Source: Candidatus Daviesbacteria bacterium (GTDB lineage Bacteria > Patescibacteriota > Microgenomatia > Daviesbacterales > UBA10151). Taken from it: a stretch of DNA of 64,000 bases. Location of the stretch: assembly GCA_016176465.1 (NCBI GenBank), contig JACOXD010000006.1, forward strand, positions 7,878-71,877, given 5' to 3'. Shown one piece after another: positions 12,037-64,000 of this stretch (position 1 is its first letter; every line of letters begins with the position of its first letter). The notes under the pieces were generated by a model. It made no database searches and had not been told where the DNA came from. It was given only the letters and a program-made list of their open reading frames with translations. Both the position numbers and the translations under genes were made by a program.

Positions 12037-13173
12037 TCAGGGATAGATTACTTGTCCAACTGCTACCATAATTTGCTCACCGTTAAAAACAGGTACTTCT
12101 CTTAAAACTACTTTTTTTACTCTTCCTTTTACTTTTACCCCATTAAAAGGTGTCCAGCCACACTTGGTATATAAAAACTCATTTCTAATCTCCCACTGCT
12201 CATCTAAATCTACCTCTATATAAGTATTATTGTCATCCTGAGCACGGGCCCCCAGAGGGGAGAAGGATCCATTTAGATTCTTCGTCTCGCCAAAGGCGGA
12301 CTCAAAATGACGGGAAGAAAGTCCAAAAACTTTCTTAGGATTAGTTGAGGTTAGTTCTATTACCCTTTCTAAGGTCAATCTCTTCTCAGCTACAGCATTT
12401 AAAAGTAACGGTAGGGTGGTTTCTAACCCTGGGACCCCAAAAGGAGGGTTTTCTGATTTTAATTTTTCATCAACAGTGTGAGGTGCATGATCAGATGCAA
12501 CCATATCCAAAACATCTAAATTTTTCCAAATATATTCAACATCTTTTTTAGAAGATAGCGGTGGTTTCATAATTCCAAAAGGTCCTAATCTTTTTAAATC
12601 TTCATTTGTTAAAAATAGATGATGGGCAGAAACTTCAGCAGTAATTGGCATTCCCGCTTCTTTAGCTATCCTAACTTGATCAATTTCTGAAGCTAGCGAT
12701 AAATGACAAACATGGAGTCTTTGTCCATGACGTTTTGCCAGATCAATCGCCGTGGCTAGGGTCGGACCCTCTGCGTGAACCATAATTATTTTACTCTTGG
12801 GCCAGTTAGCAAAAATTAACTCCAAATCATTTTGATCCTCAATAAGTAGGGGACCTGTGGTGTGATTCATATACACCTTTAGCCCCCAAACTTTTTTCTT
12901 TACTTGTTCAAAAAAAGGAACAGAAACTTTAGAGCCACCAAAGTGAAACCCTAAATCACAAAATATCCTCCCAGGAGCTAAATCTATTTTTTCTTCTAAT
13001 GATATATTGTCAACTATGGGGTTTGGGTTATTGGGCATGTCAAAAATAGTAGTATACCCTCCTGCTATGGCAGCTTTGCTGCCTGTAGCAAAGTCTTCTT
13101 TTTGGATATTCCCAGGCTCTCTTAAGTGAACATGGACATCAACTAGACCTGGCAGTTTAACAATTTTAGACAT
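12037..13173 (-). CDS. pyrC: dihydroorotase carrying an in-frame palindromic-element insertion
   Basis: Metal-binding LPGLVDVHVHLREPG. Amidohydrolase fold. C-terminal region contains a ~28-aa GC-rich insert. Confidence 0.8.
   Translation of the reverse strand: MSKIVKLPGLVDVHVHLREPGNIQKEDFATGSKAAIAGGYTTIFDMPNNPNPIVDNISLEEKIDLAPGRIFCDLGFHFGGSKVSVPFFEQVKKKVWGLKVYMNHTTGPLLIEDQNDLELIFANWPKSKIIMVHAEGPTLATAIDLAKRHGQRLHVCHLSLASEIDQVRIAKEAGMPITAEVSAHHLFLTNEDLKRLGPFGIMKPPLSSKKDVEYIWKNLDVLDMVASDHAPHTVDEKLKSENPPFGVPGLETTLPLLLNAVAEKRLTLERVIELTSTNPKKVFGLSSRHFESAFGETKNLNGSFSPLGARAQDDNNTYIEVDLDEQWEIRNEFLYTKCGWTPFNGVKVKGRVKKVVLREVPVFNGEQIMVAVGQVIYP
12231..12312. repeat. MITE-like palindromic element inserted in-frame within pyrC
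   Basis: tgtcatcctgagcacgggcccccagaggggagaaggatcc...agattcttcgtctcgcc...ctcaaaatgacgg has the family termini and GGGCCCC core. The ORF reads through it. Confidence 0.75.
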
Positions 13174-20945: not shown

Positions 20946-21049
20946 TGTCATTCTGAAGCGCGGGCCCCTTTAGGGAGGAAGGATCTAAAAGAGCTAGATT
21001 CTTCTGGTCCACTGGACCATCAGAATGACAACTTTGCTCAGAATGACAA
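20946..21049. repeat. MITE-like palindromic element at the def/fmt junction
   Basis: tgtcattctgaagcgcgggcccctttagggaggaaggatct...agattcttc...cagaatgaca with an extra terminal half-repeat. The element's ATG is in frame with fmt. Confidence 0.8.
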
Positions 21050-21912
21050 AACTAATTTTTTTTGGAAATACAAAATACTCAATAATTGGAGCAAAGGTTA
21101 TTCATAAAACCTTTCCTTTATCCGCTGTAGTGACAATTCCTGATAAAATTATTGGACGCAAAAAAGAAGTAGTACTCTCCCCTGTTAAAAAATTTGCCAT
21201 TTTGCATAACATCCCAGTTATTGAGACTAATAAATTAACAGATGAGGTGGTAGACAAAATAAAGTATTTAAACCCTGATTTTTTAGTTGTAGAAGATTAT
21301 GGCCTAATTTTACCTTTAAAATTACTAGAGATTCCTAAAATTGCTCCTTTAAACATTCATCACTCCTTACTTCCTAAATATAGAGGCCCATCCCCTGTTC
21401 CCAGCGCAATTTTAAATGGGGAAAAGTTAAGTGGAGTGACTATAATCAGGATGACTAAAGATATAGATGCAGGGGATATTTTAGCACAAAAAGAATATAC
21501 ACTAATACCTAATGAGACTACTGATTCTCTTTTAACTACATTAAACTCAATGGGTGGCGAACTTTTAGTTGATGTGATTAATCAATATTTACAAGGAACC
21601 ACTACACCACAAGCACAGAATAAAGATAAAGCTACTTTAACCAGACTTATAAAAAAAGAGGATGGGTATTTTGATATTGAAAATCCTCCAGACTCTGAGC
21701 AATTAGATAGAATGATTAGAGCTTACTTTCCCTGGCCAAATGTTTGGACAAAATGGAAGGGTAAAGTAGTGAAATTTTATCCCTCTCCCAATCATCCTGA
21801 TTCAGCTTCCGCCGGAGAAGGATCTATTCTTGTACAAATGGAAGGAAAACAAAAAACTCCTCTTAAAGATTTCCTCAATGGCTACCCAAATTTTCCTATA
21901 AAAAAAATTTAA
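21025..21912 (+). CDS. fmt: methionyl-tRNA formyltransferase
   Basis: FFGN...NIHHSLLPKYRGPSP motif. The first ATGs lie inside the element's terminal repeat, so the real start is likely near 21046. Confidence 0.85.
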   Translation: MTTLLRMTKLIFFGNTKYSIIGAKVIHKTFPLSAVVTIPDKIIGRKKEVVLSPVKKFAILHNIPVIETNKLTDEVVDKIKYLNPDFLVVEDYGLILPLKLLEIPKIAPLNIHHSLLPKYRGPSPVPSAILNGEKLSGVTIIRMTKDIDAGDILAQKEYTLIPNETTDSLLTTLNSMGGELLVDVINQYLQGTTTPQAQNKDKATLTRLIKKEDGYFDIENPPDSEQLDRMIRAYFPWPNVWTKWKGKVVKFYPSPNHPDSASAGEGSILVQMEGKQKTPLKDFLNGYPNFPIKKI

Positions 21913-35724: not shown

Positions 35725-35917
35725 TAAGCGTCATCCCCTCGGGTCTGAGCTCCCCGAGTCTGAGCCTCGGAGTCGAAGACCTGAAGCGCATTAGTAATTG
35801 TCATCCTGAAGCGCGGGCCCCTTTAGGGAGGAAGGATCTCAGGATCTAGATTCTTCGCCTTCGGCTCAGAATGACAAAAAAATATCAGAATGACACAATA
35901 AGTCAGAACGACACAAT
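35725..35917. repeat. composite of two adjacent palindromic MITE-like elements (two subfamilies)
   Basis: gcgtcatcccctcgggtctgagc...ggagtcgaagacctgaagcgc followed by tgtcatcctgaagcgcgggcccctttagggaggaaggatct...gctcagaatgacaaaaaaatatcagaatgacacaataagtcagaacgacaca. Confidence 0.8.
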
Positions 35918-40462: not shown

Positions 40463-40583
40463 ATAGAATTGACTAATTCCCTCTTAAGTCTTATTCTAAA
40501 GATGGACTAAAGATCTGCCACAAATGCTAATAAAGAAGATTTTGAACTCCTAAGGTCAGGAAACCCTAATATTTCCAAGGATT
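40463..40583. repeat. ~120-bp direct repeat copy A (duplicate of promoter + first ~20 codons of gene 41404)
   Basis: About 85% identical to 41345-41464. The reading frame is disrupted here. Confidence 0.7.
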
Positions 40584-40610: not shown

Positions 40611-41195
40611 ATGGTCATCTTCATTGATGAATCTGGTACTCATAAACAATCTGATCATGCAACTATTGCTTTAGTTTATGTAGAAATAACAGATTTGGAA
40701 ATCTTTGAGCAAGCTGTTGAAGGGATTGAAAAAGGGCTTGGTATTAAGTACTTCCACTGGACTGATGAAAAATGGCAAAAGAGAGAAAAATTTATTGAGC
40801 AACTTTTAAAGTTAGATTTTACTTTCAAGGTAGCCATTTTGGAAAATCCTGTTAAACTTTCCAAGGATCTAGAAGAAATATTAAAACACCTTGTGGTTGA
40901 AGAAAATATCAGGAAAATTATTCTTGATGGCAGAAAACCTAAGTGGTACAACCAACGGCTTAAAAAATTACTTAGAGATAAAGGAGTATCAGTAAAAAAG
41001 ATTGTAACAATCAGAAAAGATGAATCTAGCCCTGGAATAAGAGTAGCTGATTGTTTAGCAGGACTTGTCAGAACTTCCTTTGATAATCCAGACTCTTTAG
41101 CTTCCAAGCTATATAACAAATTGAAAAAAGCAAACAAGGTTAGATTTGAATTAACTGGTTACTCGCATAAGCAGAGCTTGCGACCTTCGGTCTAA
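40611..41195 (+). CDS. DUF3800-like protein
   Basis: N-terminal IFIDESG motif and later RVADCLAG, as in DUF3800 proteins. Bracketed by the 120-bp direct repeats. Confidence 0.5.
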   Translation: MVIFIDESGTHKQSDHATIALVYVEITDLEIFEQAVEGIEKGLGIKYFHWTDEKWQKREKFIEQLLKLDFTFKVAILENPVKLSKDLEEILKHLVVEENIRKIILDGRKPKWYNQRLKKLLRDKGVSVKKIVTIRKDESSPGIRVADCLAGLVRTSFDNPDSLASKLYNKLKKANKVRFELTGYSHKQSLRPSV

Positions 41196-41344
41196 AAAAA
41201 GCCCCGCTTAAAGCGAGGCCAGTTGTACAAGTAGTTCCAAATTGCTTGAAACTCGGCGGCTCACCGTCCTTTGTCCCTGCCAACTTGTTGTAGCTGTATG
41301 TTACCACAATTATTATATTAATGTAAAGACATATTTCTTCTTAA

Positions 41345-41464
41345 TAGATTGACTAGTCCCCATTTAAGCTTTATTCTAAAGATAGATATAAATTCTGCCT
41401 TAAATGTTAAGTAAAGAAGATTTTGAACTCCTAAGATCAGGAAATCCTAATTTATCCAAGGATT
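41345..41464. repeat. ~120-bp direct repeat copy B (native promoter/5' end of gene 41404)
   Basis: See copy A. Confidence 0.7.
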
Positions 41465-45102: not shown

Positions 45103-45218
45103 TGTCATCTTGAGCCTCCTCCTTGTCATCCTGATCAGGCGAAGCCTGAGAAGGATCTAGACTCTTCCTCCCTAAAGGGGCCCGCGGCTCAGAATGACAA
45201 AATAAACATCAGAATGAC
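45103..45218. repeat. MITE-like palindromic element (inverted orientation) with tandem terminal repeat
   Basis: tgtcatcttgagcc...tgtcatcctgatcaggcgaagcc...ggatctagactcttcctccctaaaggggcccgcggctcagaatgacaaaataaacatcagaatgac. Confidence 0.8.
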
Positions 45219-45225
45219 TGATAGA

Positions 45226-50226: not shown

Positions 50227-50368
50227 TGTTATCCTTTCGGGTCTGAGCCTCAGGGTCGAAGACCTGATCTTTCCTCTCGTCATCCTGAGGGCAAAACCCG
50301 AAGGATCTAGTCTAGAGATTCTTCACTTAGTACGCTCAGAATGACAATGAGTATACTTAGAACGACAC
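50227..50368. repeat. MITE-like palindromic element (composite subfamilies) between GT2 genes
   Basis: gttatcctttcgggtctgagcctcagggtcgaagacctg...cgtcatcctgagggcaaaacccgaaggatctagtctagagattcttc...gctcagaatgacaatgagtatacttagaacgacaca. Confidence 0.8.
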
Positions 50369-57184: not shown

Positions 57185-57252
57185 TGTCATTCTGAGCGAA
57201 GCGAAGAATCTAATTAGATCCTTCAATCGTTTCACTCCTTCAGGATGACAAT
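57185..57252. repeat. MITE-like palindromic element (minimal form)
   Basis: gtgtcattctgagcgaagcgaagaatctaattagatccttcaatcgtttcactccttcaggatgacaa. Confidence 0.85.
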
Positions 57253-60391: not shown

Positions 60392-60433
60392 TGAGTTCTT
60401 AGATCCTTCGCTAAAACGCTCAGGATGACACGA
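60392..60433. repeat. half MITE-like element
   Basis: gagttcttagatccttcgctaaaacgctcaggatgacac matches the right arm of the family. Confidence 0.6.
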
Positions 60434-60592: not shown

Positions 60593-61138
60593 ATGCCTAA
60601 AACAAGACAACAAAAGAAAGATTTAGTAACTAAATTAGCTGAGAAGTTAGCTAGAGCTTCCAGCGTAGTTTTTGCAGACTATCGAGGCCTTACTATGGCA
60701 AAGCTACAAGAGCTTAGGAAAGCTTTAAGGGAGCAAGAAGCAGAGTTTAGCATAACCAAAAACAACTTGCTCAAACTGGCAATAAAAGACTCATCACTCA
60801 TTACTAATTACCCATCACTGTTTGAGGGTCCAACTGCAACTCTCTTTGCTTATGGTGACCAAATCTTACCATTAAAAACTATGACAAAATTAATTAAAGA
60901 TACTAAAATTGGGGAAATAAAATTAGGTTTAATGGATGGGGAGATTTTAGATAAATATGCAATTGAAAAACTTGCTTCCCTTCCTTCAAAAGATGAACTT
61001 AGAGCTAAAATTGTGGGAAGCTTGGGCGCTCCACTTTATGGAATTGTTGGGGTTTTGCAAGCTAATTTAAGGAATTTAGTTTACGCACTAGATGGAATTA
61101 GAAAACAAAAAGGAGGTGACATACAAATGTCATCTTGA
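60593..61138 (+). CDS. rplJ: ribosomal protein uL10
   Basis: VVFADYRGLTMAKLQELRKALRE...EFSITKN. Stop codon lies inside a MITE terminal repeat. Confidence 0.9.
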   Translation: MPKTRQQKKDLVTKLAEKLARASSVVFADYRGLTMAKLQELRKALREQEAEFSITKNNLLKLAIKDSSLITNYPSLFEGPTATLFAYGDQILPLKTMTKLIKDTKIGEIKLGLMDGEILDKYAIEKLASLPSKDELRAKIVGSLGAPLYGIVGVLQANLRNLVYALDGIRKQKGGDIQMSS

Positions 61139-61201
61139 GCGTAAGCGAAAGATCTCAAGATTTAAGTCTTTAGATTCTTCGTCTTCGCCTCAGAATGACA
61201 A
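61128..61201. repeat. MITE-like palindromic element spanning the rplJ stop / rplL start
   Basis: tgtcatcttgagcgtaagcgaaagatctcaagatttaagtctttagattcttcgtcttcgcctcagaatgacaa. Confidence 0.85.
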
Positions 61202-61725
61202 TTGTTATTATGCAAGATTTACAAAATAAACCAAAAGATGCTCCAGTAGCTGGAGAAAACACAATAGTTGAAGCTGCGCCAGCAGAGCCTGCAAAAGAAG
61301 CAGCTGAAGTTTTAGAGAAAGTAGAGGAACCTAAACCTGTTTCAGCAAGCTTAGAAAAAATAATTGAACAGATTGAAAAATTATCTGTTTTAGAGTTGGC
61401 TGATTTGGTTCATGCTCTTGAAGAAAGATTTGGAGTAAGCGCAGCAGCTCCTGTAGCAGTTGCAGCAGGTGCCCCCTCCACCGGAGGTGCCGGCGAGCCA
61501 CAGGAAGAACAAACTACTTTTAATGTAGTTTTGGCAAATGCTGGAGCTAATAAAATTGGTGTTATTAAAGCAGTTAGAGAGTTAGTTCCAACTTTAGGAT
61601 TAAAAGAGGCTAAAGATTTAGTTGAAAGCGCACCAAAACCAGTTTTGGAAGGCGTTAATAAGCAGACCGCTGAGGGGGCAAAAGCTAGATTAGTTAGTGC
61701 TGGGGCTCAAGTTGAGTTACAGTAA
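61195..61725 (+). CDS. rplL: ribosomal protein bL12 (L7/L12)
   Basis: [30 protein letters not shown]...[34 protein letters not shown]. The first ATG is the element's cagaATGaca, so the in-frame ATG at 61210 may be the real start. Confidence 0.9.
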
Positions 61726-62252: not shown

Positions 62253-63032
62253 CTATTTTTTCAGAATTAAGAAAATAAATTTCACAAGAGCATCAAATCT
62301 TTTTATCCTCCAAGGTTGAACTATTAATCTAAATAACCATTCAAATCCTATCAGTCTAATAAAAAGTGGTGCTCTTGGAATCTTTCCTGAGATATAATCA
62401 AGGGTGCCTCCAACACCGATAAATACTTTACTATCAATATGTTTTATATTTTCCTTGATCCATTTCTCTTGCTTTCCATGACCAAAAGCTACCAATAAAA
62501 TATCAACTTTTTCTATTTTTATTTTTTCATTATTTAGCATTTCTCCATCACTACTTATTTTTCCACCATGATCTGTATAGACAATTTTCAAATTGGGAAA
62601 TTTAGTTAACAAGCGCTCTTTTGCTTTGGCTGCTACATTTTTTTGCCCTCCCAAAAGGCCTATTCTAAAGCCTTTTTCCTCACAAATAGACATAAATTTC
62701 AGTATTAAATCTGTACCAGTTACTGTAGGAAATTTGCTTTCTATCAATTTAGGAAATATAAAAAAAGGCCAGTAGATCAATTTCACTATAAAGTTGTTAG
62801 TTTCTAAAACTTTTAGTGCCCATCCTAACCTAGAACTATCGGGAATAGATAAATCTGCATCATTTATTATTTTTTTAAATTCTAAATCTTTCTGAGCCTG
62901 TATAATTATTTCTACATTGGTTGTGACTATATAGTGTTTACCCTGGCCACTAATCCAGACTTGAATATGTTTTAAAACATCTTGGTAATTTACTTTACTT
63001 ACTTTTACTCCTAAGATATTAACTTGCTCCAC
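62253..63032 (-). CDS. WecB/TagA/CpsF-family (GT26) glycosyltransferase
   Basis: VNILGVKVSKVNYQDVL...DADLSIPDSSRLGWAL N-terminus and overall length are typical of GT26. Confidence 0.7.
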   Translation of the reverse strand: MEQVNILGVKVSKVNYQDVLKHIQVWISGQGKHYIVTTNVEIIIQAQKDLEFKKIINDADLSIPDSSRLGWALKVLETNNFIVKLIYWPFFIFPKLIESKFPTVTGTDLILKFMSICEEKGFRIGLLGGQKNVAAKAKERLLTKFPNLKIVYTDHGGKISSDGEMLNNEKIKIEKVDILLVAFGHGKQEKWIKENIKHIDSKVFIGVGGTLDYISGKIPRAPLFIRLIGFEWLFRLIVQPWRIKRFDALVKFIFLILKK

Positions 63033-63999
63033 TGTTTACCTCCTTAAATAGCTTAAGTGTCTCTTTTGCAGCTATCTGCCAAGAAAATTTATTTAACTGC
63101 AAATAACCCTTTTTTGTTAGTTTATCCCTAAAATTATTATCCGTTAATTTGATCATACCATCTCTAATTGCATCAATATTATAAGGGTCAACCAAAATGG
63201 CTGCCTCACCTGCAACTTCAGGTAAGGAGGAAATATTTGAAGTTAAAACAGGACAGCCACAAGAGAAAGCCTCCAATATAGGCAAGCCAAATCCTTCAAA
63301 CAGGGAAGGATATACTAAACCTAGTGCTCCGGAATACAAAGCAGGCAAATCCCTATCTTCCACCCTGCCCAGAAATTTTACTTTACCTTCAATTCCCAGC
63401 TTCTTTGGTAACTCGTAAATTTCATCAGATTTCCACCCTTTATCTCCTACTAAAACTAATTTAATACTGTCATTCTGAACCGAAGGTGAAGAATCTATCA
63501 AACTATTCTTTCGCACTTGAGATCCTTCCTCGCTAAAAGGGGCCCGTGCCCTCAGGATGACATCACTAAAAGCCTTAATTAATCTCTCCAGATTTTTCCT
63601 TGGCTGAATTGTTCCTACAAAGAGAAAAAAGTTTTTTGATACTAGGTTATACTGCCTCAAACTGTTTACTAACATCTTACCTTTGACAGCTTTAAATACC
63701 TCTCTATCTACTCCTTCATAAATAACTTTAATTTTTTCCTCCTTAATCCCTACTTTTTCTACTAAATCTTTCTTTGTAGCATTTGATACTGCAATAATTT
63801 TTATGGCAGTTTTGAGTTGAATTTTGGTTATAAATTTTAGATATAAGATTTGTTTTAGCTGATGGTATCCAGGCAGGTATTCTGAACCCAAATCATGAAC
63901 AGTAAGTACAGTTTTAAGTCTTGGATTTCTAACTATGGGCAAAGTATGCGCAGGTATAAAAAGAAGATCTAAGTTATCCTTAAAGGTTTCAATTCCCAA
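63019..63999 (-). CDS. GT4-family glycosyltransferase (N-terminus beyond window) with in-frame palindromic-element insertion
   Basis: C-terminal GT-B motifs FLFVGTIQPRKN...LVLVGDKGW...PSLFEGFGLPILEAFSCGCPVLTS. A 32-codon GC-rich insert sits between the beta-strand and the LVLVGD motif. Confidence 0.75.
   Translation of the reverse strand: MGIETFKDNLDLLFIPAHTLPIVRNPRLKTVLTVHDLGSEYLPGYHQLKQILYLKFITKIQLKTAIKIIAVSNATKKDLVEKVGIKEEKIKVIYEGVDREVFKAVKGKMLVNSLRQYNLVSKNFFLFVGTIQPRKNLERLIKAFSDVILRARAPFSEEGSQVRKNSLIDSSPSVQNDSIKLVLVGDKGWKSDEIYELPKKLGIEGKVKFLGRVEDRDLPALYSGALGLVYPSLFEGFGLPILEAFSCGCPVLTSNISSLPEVAGEAAILVDPYNIDAIRDGMIKLTDNNFRDKLTKKGYLQLNKFSWQIAAKETLKLFKEVNSGAS
63468..63563. repeat. MITE-like palindromic element inserted in-frame in the GT4 gene
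   Basis: tgtcattctgaaccgaaggtgaagaatct...gatccttcctcgctaaaaggggcccgtgccctcaggatgacat. 96 nt = 32 codons, read through as ...SDVILRARAPFSEEGSQVRKNSLIDSSPSVQNDS... Confidence 0.8.
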
Positions 64000-64000
64000 T

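Follow-up and report, generated by a model that had tools for sequence, protein, structure and literature searches.

The 64,000-nucleotide (nt) stretch of contig JACOXD010000006.1 from a Candidatus Daviesbacteria bacterium (hereafter the window) ends within a gene for a family 4 glycosyltransferase (GT4), and the coding sequence of this gene is interrupted by a short palindromic repeat element. The element is formed by two tagged hairpin units joined in opposite orientation, and it is read in frame with the enzyme. The locus includes the following features.

63019..63999, minus strand: open reading frame (ORF) of the host gene, a GT4 glycosyltransferase of the GT-B fold, which runs off the window and starts beyond position 64000.
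63468..63562, minus strand: the GT4 element, a complete heterodimer of two tagged hairpin units with their tags facing outward, recognized by unit pattern and family profile.
63520..63562, minus strand: C-type unit of the element, TGTC / ATCCT / GA / GGGCACGGGCCCCTTTTAGCGAG / GA / AGGAT / CT.
63497..63519: spacer of 23 nt between the two units, which is longer than the spacers of the other window copies.
63468..63496, plus strand: T-type unit of the element, TGTC / ATTCT / GA / ACC GAA GGT / GA / AGAAT / CT.

The window contains the C-terminal 326 codons of the host gene along with its stop codon. This ORF carries the Pfam domains Glycos_transf_1 (7e-34) and Glyco_transf_4 (6e-13), and it is 100% identical to the database protein P0001, a glycosyltransferase family 4 protein of 398 amino acids from Candidatus Daviesbacteria. 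The gene order, wherein GT4 is followed by a WecG/TagA-type transferase and then by a helix-turn-helix protein, is conserved, and the compared proteins are therefore treated as orthologs. The ORF reads through the element as ...AFSD-VILRARAPFSEEGSQVRKNSLIDSSPSVQND-SIKLVLVG..., which matches the peptide (...AFSDVILRARAPFSEEGSQVRKNSLIDSSPSVQNDSIKLVLVG...) quoted in a preliminary description of this DNA. The element peptide, VILRARAPFSEEGSQVRKNSLIDSSPSVQND, comprises 31 residues (219 to 249) of the 398-residue enzyme, and the loop includes the peptides APFSEEGSQVR and NSLIDSSPSVQNDSIK.

From terminus to terminus, the element spans 95 nt (63468 to 63562). Its ends, TGTCATTCTGA (63468 to 63478) and TCAGGATGACA (63552 to 63562), are inverted repeats that match at 10 of 11 positions, and it is flanked by ...GCTTTTAGTG on one side and ...ATTAAATTAGTT on the other. 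The preliminary description placed the element at 63468 to 63563, or 96 nt and 32 codons. The sequence that it quoted is indeed present there, but one flanking base had been counted in. Likewise, the statement that the length is an exact multiple of three does not apply to the 95-nt element, and is true of the whole loop, which is made up of 5 + 95 + 8 = 108 nt. Only one of the six reading frames of the element is open, and this is the frame used by the gene.

In an AlphaFold model of the host enzyme, based on 36 homologs, residues 219 to 249 are placed between a helix (209 to 222) and a strand (252 to 256), which is the α1–β2 connection of the C-terminal Rossmann domain. Its mean score in the predicted local distance difference test (pLDDT) is 86.6 for the model as a whole, and the sole segment scoring below 50 corresponds to residues 225 to 247. 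The GT-B fold is otherwise intact, with template-modeling scores of ∼0.71 to 0.78 in Foldseek comparisons with closed-state MshA (3c4q), BshA, and other GT4 structures, and the sequence alignment to MshA from the PDB ends at residue 218 and restarts at residue 264. The intact minus-strand ORF and the model support the claim that the element is read in frame inside this domain. The expected loop location is also recovered, in that the insert coincides with the only low-confidence, putatively disordered segment of the model, although the insert lies between a helix and a strand and not, as had been proposed, between conserved β-strands. In Rossmann folds, the connections leading from a helix to the next strand face away from the strand ends that bind ligand. 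From this established general topology, the loop would point away from the nucleotide-sugar site. A position opposite the ligand-binding strand ends fits the tolerance of an insert.

The GT4 element belongs to a repeat family with other copies in the window. Every unit of the family consists, in order, of a (T/C)GTC tag, ATYCT, GA, a variable stem-loop, GA, AGRAT, and CT(A). The tag is unpaired, ATYCT and AGRAT form a 5-bp stem, the GA dinucleotides provide tandem G/A mismatches, and these are followed by a very variable distal stem-loop (a stem of 2–7 bp or more and a loop of at least 3 nt among the window units) and a CT(A) tail. A strict version of this pattern identifies 16 complete hairpin units in the window versus 0.04 in shuffled sequences, and the 11-nt tag TGTCATYCTGA has 24 window matches at no more than one mismatch versus 1.8 expected. 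The tag is TGTC in 14 of the 16 units and CGTC in the other two, and TGTCAT is invariant among the tag matches. A search of the window with a family profile recovers eight full dimers and one singleton, and the GT4 element scores E = 2.5e-16 with this profile, which was built from the eight window copies, the GT4 element itself included. The left end of the element (19 nt) has five window matches at three or fewer mismatches, versus 0.01 expected. Both of its units have counterparts elsewhere in the window, wherein the inner module of the C-type unit (GGGCCCC...TTTAG) is common to the window copies at 12231, 20946, 35799, and 45199, and the T-type unit is 93% complementary to the unit at 35847 to 35876 and 87% complementary to that at 61171 to 61200.

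The stem of the unit hairpin is supported by nucleotide covariation. Among 22 distinct units, the third stem position is C-G in 11, T-A in nine, and T-G in two, with no mismatches, and the free stem positions are paired in all 22; the AT...AT ends of the stem were imposed by the search pattern, and covariation was judged on the free positions. One unit carries a double compensatory change (ATCTT/AAGAT). Moreover, six of the eight dimers are heterodimers that join one ATCCT/AGGAT unit to one ATTCT/AGAAT unit. The mixed unit types, together with the covariation, show that pairing occurs within units, where it is perfect, and not between arms, where it is imperfect. What is conserved is thus the half-unit hairpin, with the element as a heterodimer of such units that has 11-nt inverted ends. 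A hairpin formed by the whole element was ruled out as the conserved structure, since the arms are systematically different units and the covariation lies within each unit.

Several units have inner loops of the GCGAAGC type. GCGAAGC forms an unusually stable DNA mini-hairpin, which may fit a signal read in single-stranded DNA. The predicted folding of the GT4 element as a whole is modest, with z-scores of −1.35 for RNA and of −1.8 to −1.9 for DNA. An Rfam search over the whole window at the gathering threshold found three tRNAs and a DUF3800-II RNA, none of which lies on the elements, and relaxing the threshold to E ≤ 1 around the GT4 element gave just a chance snoRNA match. A promoter and terminator scan of the same region found nothing beyond shuffle expectation.

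The other window copies are 66 to 85 nt long, and their lengths fall into all three classes modulo three. Across the family, nine of 48 reading frames are open versus 8.5 to 13 in shuffles, such that open frames are not enriched, and one tag frame contains TGA. A family built to be translatable is ruled out by this shuffle-level count. The lack of enrichment and the TGA in one tag frame indicate that the in-frame state is what selection lets pass and not a design, and a length divisible by three is a survivorship filter rather than a property of the element.

The history of the insertion site can be read from GT4 orthologs. Across 120 aligned homologs, between 7 and 66 residues separate “...RKNLERLIKAF” from “LVLVGxKGW”, and 10 homologs have essentially no loop. 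Measured from GT.QPRKN to GW, the segment has 33 to 40 amino acids in outgroup orthologs from the candidate phyla radiation and Chloroflexi, versus 61 in this window, and the same 33 to 40 amino acids are found at 13 of the 24 Daviesbacteria-level genome loci with a readable motif. The short loop of the outgroups and of many Daviesbacteria indicates that the short form is ancestral and that the insert is derived. As the preliminary description had anticipated, alignment with GT4 homologs reveals the stretch as extra relative to insert-less orthologs and outgroups. The same description held that comparable homolog loops made of unrelated DNA would speak against its proposal. The observed picture is mixed and does not refute it, in that some homologs carry unrelated repeats, ∼27 of the 120 share the same tag signature, and the 10 mentioned above are essentially loopless.

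The loop was examined as DNA in 11 orthologs with an insert, all of which were chosen for or recognized by a tagged insert and hence are not a random sample. In all 11, the tagged element comes to an end exactly 8 nt ahead of the codon with which the β-strand opens. Around this fixed right junction, nearly everything else varies. The left flanks measure 2, 5, or 9 nt from the Ala-Phe codons, the elements are between 62 and 113 nt long, entry is in the VIL... or the CH[PS]... frame, either the C-type or the T-type unit can come first, and the stems are of the ATYCT, ATTGC, or ATCCC type. Despite the differing element lengths, none of the 11 loops contains a stop codon, and each has a length divisible by three. 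At two loci (L085 and L089), the left halves of the elements are nearly identical and the right halves are unrelated. The loop peptides are not conserved between orthologs. At the nucleotide level, element termini are 87–90% identical between orthologs whose host proteins are 65% identical and whose synonymous third positions are 41% identical, which argues that the termini are not decaying neutrally.

The occupant of the loop resembles the repeat family resident in its own genome. At locus L016, copies of the ATTGC type are found both in the flanks and in the loop, and copies of the ATYCT type occur in L091 (10 tags per 10 kb) and in the window (3.3 per 10 kb), whereas the insert-less loci L001, L005, and L007 are almost tag-free.

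Other kinds of repeat also occupy this loop. Unrelated palindromic or tandem repeats are found there in L020, L025, L007, L014, and many of the P-numbered homologs, one example being CACCTCCGAGG...CCTCGGAGGTG, translated as HLRGV...HLGGE, and another the “KSLIINHKS” repeats, which are AT-rich. A second landing pad is present in the N-terminal domain of GT4, between “YLRP” and “WPxNF”, where ∼20 of the 120 homologs have inserts of 13 to 57 residues, often with the same tag peptides (VIL.../CHPE...QND/RMT). This second pad is empty in the protein of this window and is occupied in P0014, P0026, P0034, P0070, P0074, P0080, P0091, P0093, P0119, and others, as well as in L091 (10138 to 10262) and L086 (1644 to 1671).

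Beyond the GT4 element, the family is represented in the window by the following copies.

12231..12312, minus strand: in-frame copy of 82 nt in dihydroorotase (ORF 12037–13173), covering approximately residues 287 to 314 and read as RHFESAFGETKNLNGSFSPLGARAQDD.
20946..21030, plus strand: intergenic copy between def and fmt, with a solo tag at 21038–21048.
35799..35876, plus strand: intergenic copy, with further solo tags at 35885–35895 and 35903–35913.
45124..45199, plus strand: intergenic copy between convergent genes, with nested outer tags at 45103–45113 and 45209–45219.
50278..50346, plus strand: intergenic copy whose left-end tag is CGTC.
57185..57250, plus strand: intergenic copy whose left unit has a GCGAAGC mini-hairpin.
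60401..60430, minus strand: single unit (singleton).
61128..61200, plus strand: copy between rplJ and rplL, with tags at 61128–61138 and 61190–61200.

Five dimers and the singleton are thus intergenic, one dimer lies across the end of rplJ, and two dimers are internal to genes and in frame. The intergenic copies abut stop or start codons. The TGA stop codon of rplJ is inside the left tag of the copy at 61128 to 61200, an ATG in its right tag opens the longest rplL ORF, and the solo tag at 21038 to 21048 holds the likely start of fmt (ATG ACA AAA, giving MTKLIFFG). The rplL ORF (61195 to 61725) encodes 176 amino acids with an Ala/Pro/Glu-rich N-terminal extension of ∼45 residues, and its orthologs measure 121 amino acids in L091 and 194 in L093, so that the extension is variable among Daviesbacteria. 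Like the GT4 element, the copy at 35799 to 35876 joins a unit that has the GGGCCCC module to a short unit with a GAA loop.

The dihydroorotase copy is the second case in which the repeat is tolerated within a protein. Residues 2 to 286 and 315 to 372 of this enzyme align with human CAD dihydroorotase (E = 3e-88), and between them are 28 extra residues versus two in the human protein. The site has no insert in 112 of 120 homologs, and inserts are found in the closest relatives only, two of which have the same tag signature. This supports the earlier view that the family is tolerated within proteins. The preliminary description also spoke of the GT4 copy as a third independent in-frame insertion in the window. 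Two internal insertions, in GT4 and dihydroorotase, are verified, and the third is only plausible. The candidate is a single degenerate unit within fmt (21043 to 21912) at 21792 to 21830, AATC ATCCT GA ...GA AGGAT CTA, which encodes NHPDSASAGEGSI in frame within the methionyl-tRNA formyltransferase, in its C-terminal domain, and gives a weak nhmmer match (E = 0.021). At the GT4 site itself, the word “independent” is uncertain, since many orthologs carry related elements that end at the identical nucleotide position.

Solo 11-nt tags are also nested outside complete elements, at a spacing of 18–21 nt and with unrelated spacers (21020–21048, 35866–35913, 45103–45134, and 45189–45219), and similar nesting occurs in L091 (11337–11440 and 15311–15467). 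Such nested tags may reflect repeated events at existing tags. Another repeat of 30 nt, CGrGTCTGAGCCTCrGrGTCGAAGACCTGA, adjoins two of the elements (35755–35784 and 50238–50267, 90% identical), and may be either a different repeat family or part of a composite.

We consider it likely that the GT4 element is one copy of a family of the repetitive extragenic palindromic (REP) type that is abundant in its genome, translated as a passenger at a long-standing landing pad whose content turns over. According to this model, the element would be transcribed and translated with its gene to form a disordered surface loop of ∼31 residues that is tolerated but not used, and the peptide is presumably neutral. 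Selection would act as a filter through which only in-frame, open copies survive. The GT4 loop would be a permissive landing pad that has long been occupied in the Daviesbacteria clade, and its content would be renewed from the repeat pool of each genome, either by insertion at the existing occupant or by its replacement. The fact that differing subfamilies, lengths, and frames meet at one junction, and that each occupant is like the resident family, suggests repeated insertion or replacement. The route of renewal could be insertion where a tag or hairpin is already present, or recombination of one tag with another. Movement may accordingly be hairpin- or tag-directed and involve single-stranded DNA, with cutting and pasting by a REP-associated tyrosine transposase (RAYT) or IS200-like enzyme, or it may occur by tag recombination.

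Several observations weigh against this model or restrict how far it reaches. No Y1/HUH or other transposase domain was detected in 29 small ORFs of the window, and there is neither a target-site duplication nor a conserved flank motif at the eight window copies. Because no duplication or flank motif is visible, the fixed right junction is not explained by sequence preference, and because sequence preference, target-site duplication, and transposase are all missing, we infer the mechanism of movement. No empty-site allele of this lineage was found, the nearest GT4 homolog being 62% identical and the other contigs with the protein carrying an identical sequence. If 95 or 96 nt are cut out, the remaining loop is shorter than in any ortholog, and so the event was not a simple insertion into a known ancestral sequence. 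On a neighbor-joining tree of the 120 homologs, the insert types are interspersed, but the tree is shallow and is unreliable for counting events. Translation of the element and activity of the enzyme are presumed from the integrity of the ORF, and low pLDDT values are no proof of disorder.

A more specific version of these events, which we regard as speculative and rather unlikely, is that the fixed junction does not stem from ancestry by accident. An active recombinase in Daviesbacteria, specific for the tag and guided by the hairpin, would time and again exchange or add TGTC-tagged units at a tag already in place, such that the coding loop serves as a cassette site restocked from the repeat pool of the genome. 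If true, this would offer a first handle on the mobilization of CGTC/TGTC REPs, and would explain the nested solo tags beside many copies.

The identical right junction in the 11 orthologs could also be accounted for by one ancient insertion in an early Daviesbacteria ancestor, followed by vertical inheritance, with the ends and hairpins kept because the structure of the mRNA or DNA, or else the loop itself, is functional. The role could be that of a translational pause between the Rossmann halves, of an RNase or stability signal, or of a binding site. The conservation of the termini well over that of synonymous sites agrees with this explanation, as do the long identical left halves in some orthologs (L085 and L089) and the stem covariation, which includes a T-G pair that would be tolerated in RNA too. 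However, outgroups and many Daviesbacteria lack the insert, the occupants differ in subfamily, unit order, and entry frame, and each matches the resident family of its own genome. Furthermore, these elements lie mainly between genes at other places, the peptides show no conservation, and the folding of the GT4 element is unexceptional by the z-scores given above. On balance, we find a single ancient insertion unlikely.

Alternatively, the family might comprise classical MITEs, or miniature inverted-repeat transposable elements, derived from an insertion sequence and moved via their 11-nt ends by the cut-and-paste action of a DDE transposase, in which case the GT4 copy would be a recent and random in-frame event. 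The 11-nt terminal inverted repeats, shared by all copies, their size of 66 to 95 nt, and the many dispersed copies are what such elements would show. Yet none of the eight copies has a target-site duplication, covariation favors hairpins within the halves over pairing of the ends, singleton units and extra solo tags are present, and halves are reassorted from copy to copy. The window contains no parent insertion sequence, and random landings would miss the one nucleotide shared by 11 orthologs. A MITE origin is therefore improbable in our judgment.

It is highly improbable that the element is absent from the protein through translational bypassing, removal from the mRNA, or decay of the gene into a dead pseudogene. 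Hairpins are present, and ribosomal bypassing of palindromic inserts is known from yeast mitochondria. Against this, the ORF runs unbroken through 398 codons and the flanks are strongly conserved, each of the 120 homologs in the database is annotated as one full-length protein, the dihydroorotase copy likewise lies in an intact frame, and there is no Rfam match on the elements. Stop-free loops that are multiples of three, as in 11 of 11 orthologs, would be unnecessary if the sequence were skipped. Finally, although this connection is variable in length among GT4 enzymes (∼25 residues in MshA), an ordinary lineage-specific loop with a coincidental likeness to the repeats is refuted for practical purposes by the fit of both termini and both unit closures to the family, by the profile match, and by the 0.04 units expected per window by chance.

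Among described repeats, the Daviesbacteria family most closely invites comparison with the CGTC-tagged REPs, which include RPE-4 and RPE-6 of Rickettsia conorii and dRS3 of Neisseria (Di Nocera, De Gregorio and Rocco 2013, PMC3733652). In that class, the tag is often TGTC, with CCTC as a variant, the stems start with A-T and T-A pairs, and a short tail is unpaired. Its members are dispersed, mostly intergenic, and near gene ends, form head-to-head dimers that are often heterodimers, and when intragenic add 20 to 30 residues in frame; a dedicated transposase is not known (PMC3733652). The families of the class, reported from five phyla, have stems of 8 to 9 bp, loops of 4 to 5 nt, and a CCA tail (PMC3733652). 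The Daviesbacteria repeats share the tag, the A-T/T-A start of the stem, the unpaired tail, the intergenic spread, the heterodimers, and the in-frame intragenic copies. They differ in having a bipartite stem, with 5 bp followed by tandem G/A mismatches and a very variable distal stem-loop, in their CT(A) tail, in their candidate-phyla (Microgenomates) host, which is outside the five reported phyla, and in recurring, exact to the nucleotide, at one coding loop. Placement of the family in the CGTC/TGTC-tagged REP superfamily is therefore supported, by described anatomy and not by the CGTC-1 to CGTC-4 consensus sequences.

The classic precedent for in-frame residence in proteins is given by the Rickettsia palindromic elements (RPEs), which lie in frame in conserved housekeeping genes, where they are read through and contribute a peptide at sites considered fold-compatible, and whose insertion sites recur in related species (Ogata et al. 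2000, reviewed in PMC10969869). RPE-1 is ∼150 bp long and encodes a conserved peptide (PMC10969869). The Daviesbacteria copies are similarly in frame at permissive positions of conserved proteins (the GT4 loop and dihydroorotase), and their insertion sites likewise recur among relatives. Unlike RPE-1, the elements in the loop are 62 to 113 nt and their peptides are not conserved, and unlike RPEs in general, many subfamilies meet at one fixed junction in orthologs.

Two further systems offer partial parallels. REPINs consist of two inverted REP hairpins with a spacer, leave singleton remnants, form genome-specific populations, and are described as extragenic (Bertels and Rainey 2011, PMC3116915); their recognition signal is likely the hairpin together with a 5′ tag, which is GTAG (PMC3116915). 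The Daviesbacteria elements likewise comprise two inverted units with a spacer, occur also as singletons, form populations particular to each genome, and appear to work like REPINs, with the hairpin and its tag as the likely signal for recognition. In contrast, their tag is TGTC or CGTC rather than GTAG, and no RAYT gene was found in the window. The QMITE1 elements of Coxiella are 300–400 bp long, have direct repeats of 2 to 3 nt, and can join annotated ORFs (PMC5896051). The present repeats resemble them as small non-autonomous repeats with inverted ends that can be part of ORFs, but lack flanking direct repeats, and their conserved structure is the half-unit hairpin.

Literature searches listed no account of REP, RPE, REPIN, or RAYT repeats in candidate-phyla bacteria, which is weak evidence of absence, and searches with the literal DNA and peptide strings of the element returned unrelated primer matches only. 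In-frame repeat insertion is a known kind of event, as in Rickettsia, found here in a candidate-phyla bacterium, and no new kind of system is involved. What the locus adds is that in-frame insertions into proteins do arise from small palindromic repeats in bacteria other than Rickettsia, in this case in a reduced candidate-phyla genome. Annotators will meet their tell-tale peptides (VIL..., CHPE..., ...QND, and ...RMT) in “hypothetical” or oddly long proteins, and recognition of these peptides explains variation in ortholog length and start or stop codons donated by tags. The interest of the site derives mainly from the recurrent occupancy of a fixed junction, which goes beyond what the preliminary description had observed. 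The GT4 loop is a natural experiment in which many independent or refreshed occupants share a nucleotide-exact junction, and these occupants could help to work out the movement of tagged REPs and to locate permissive sites in GT-B enzymes.

A repeated arrangement of another kind surrounds the DUF3800-II RNA detected by Rfam (55 bits). This RNA lies at 41217 to 41291, just after a DUF3800 ORF (40611 to 41195), and is inside a direct repeat of ∼116 nt whose two copies (40468–40583 and 41348–41464) are 880 nt apart and 76–92% identical.

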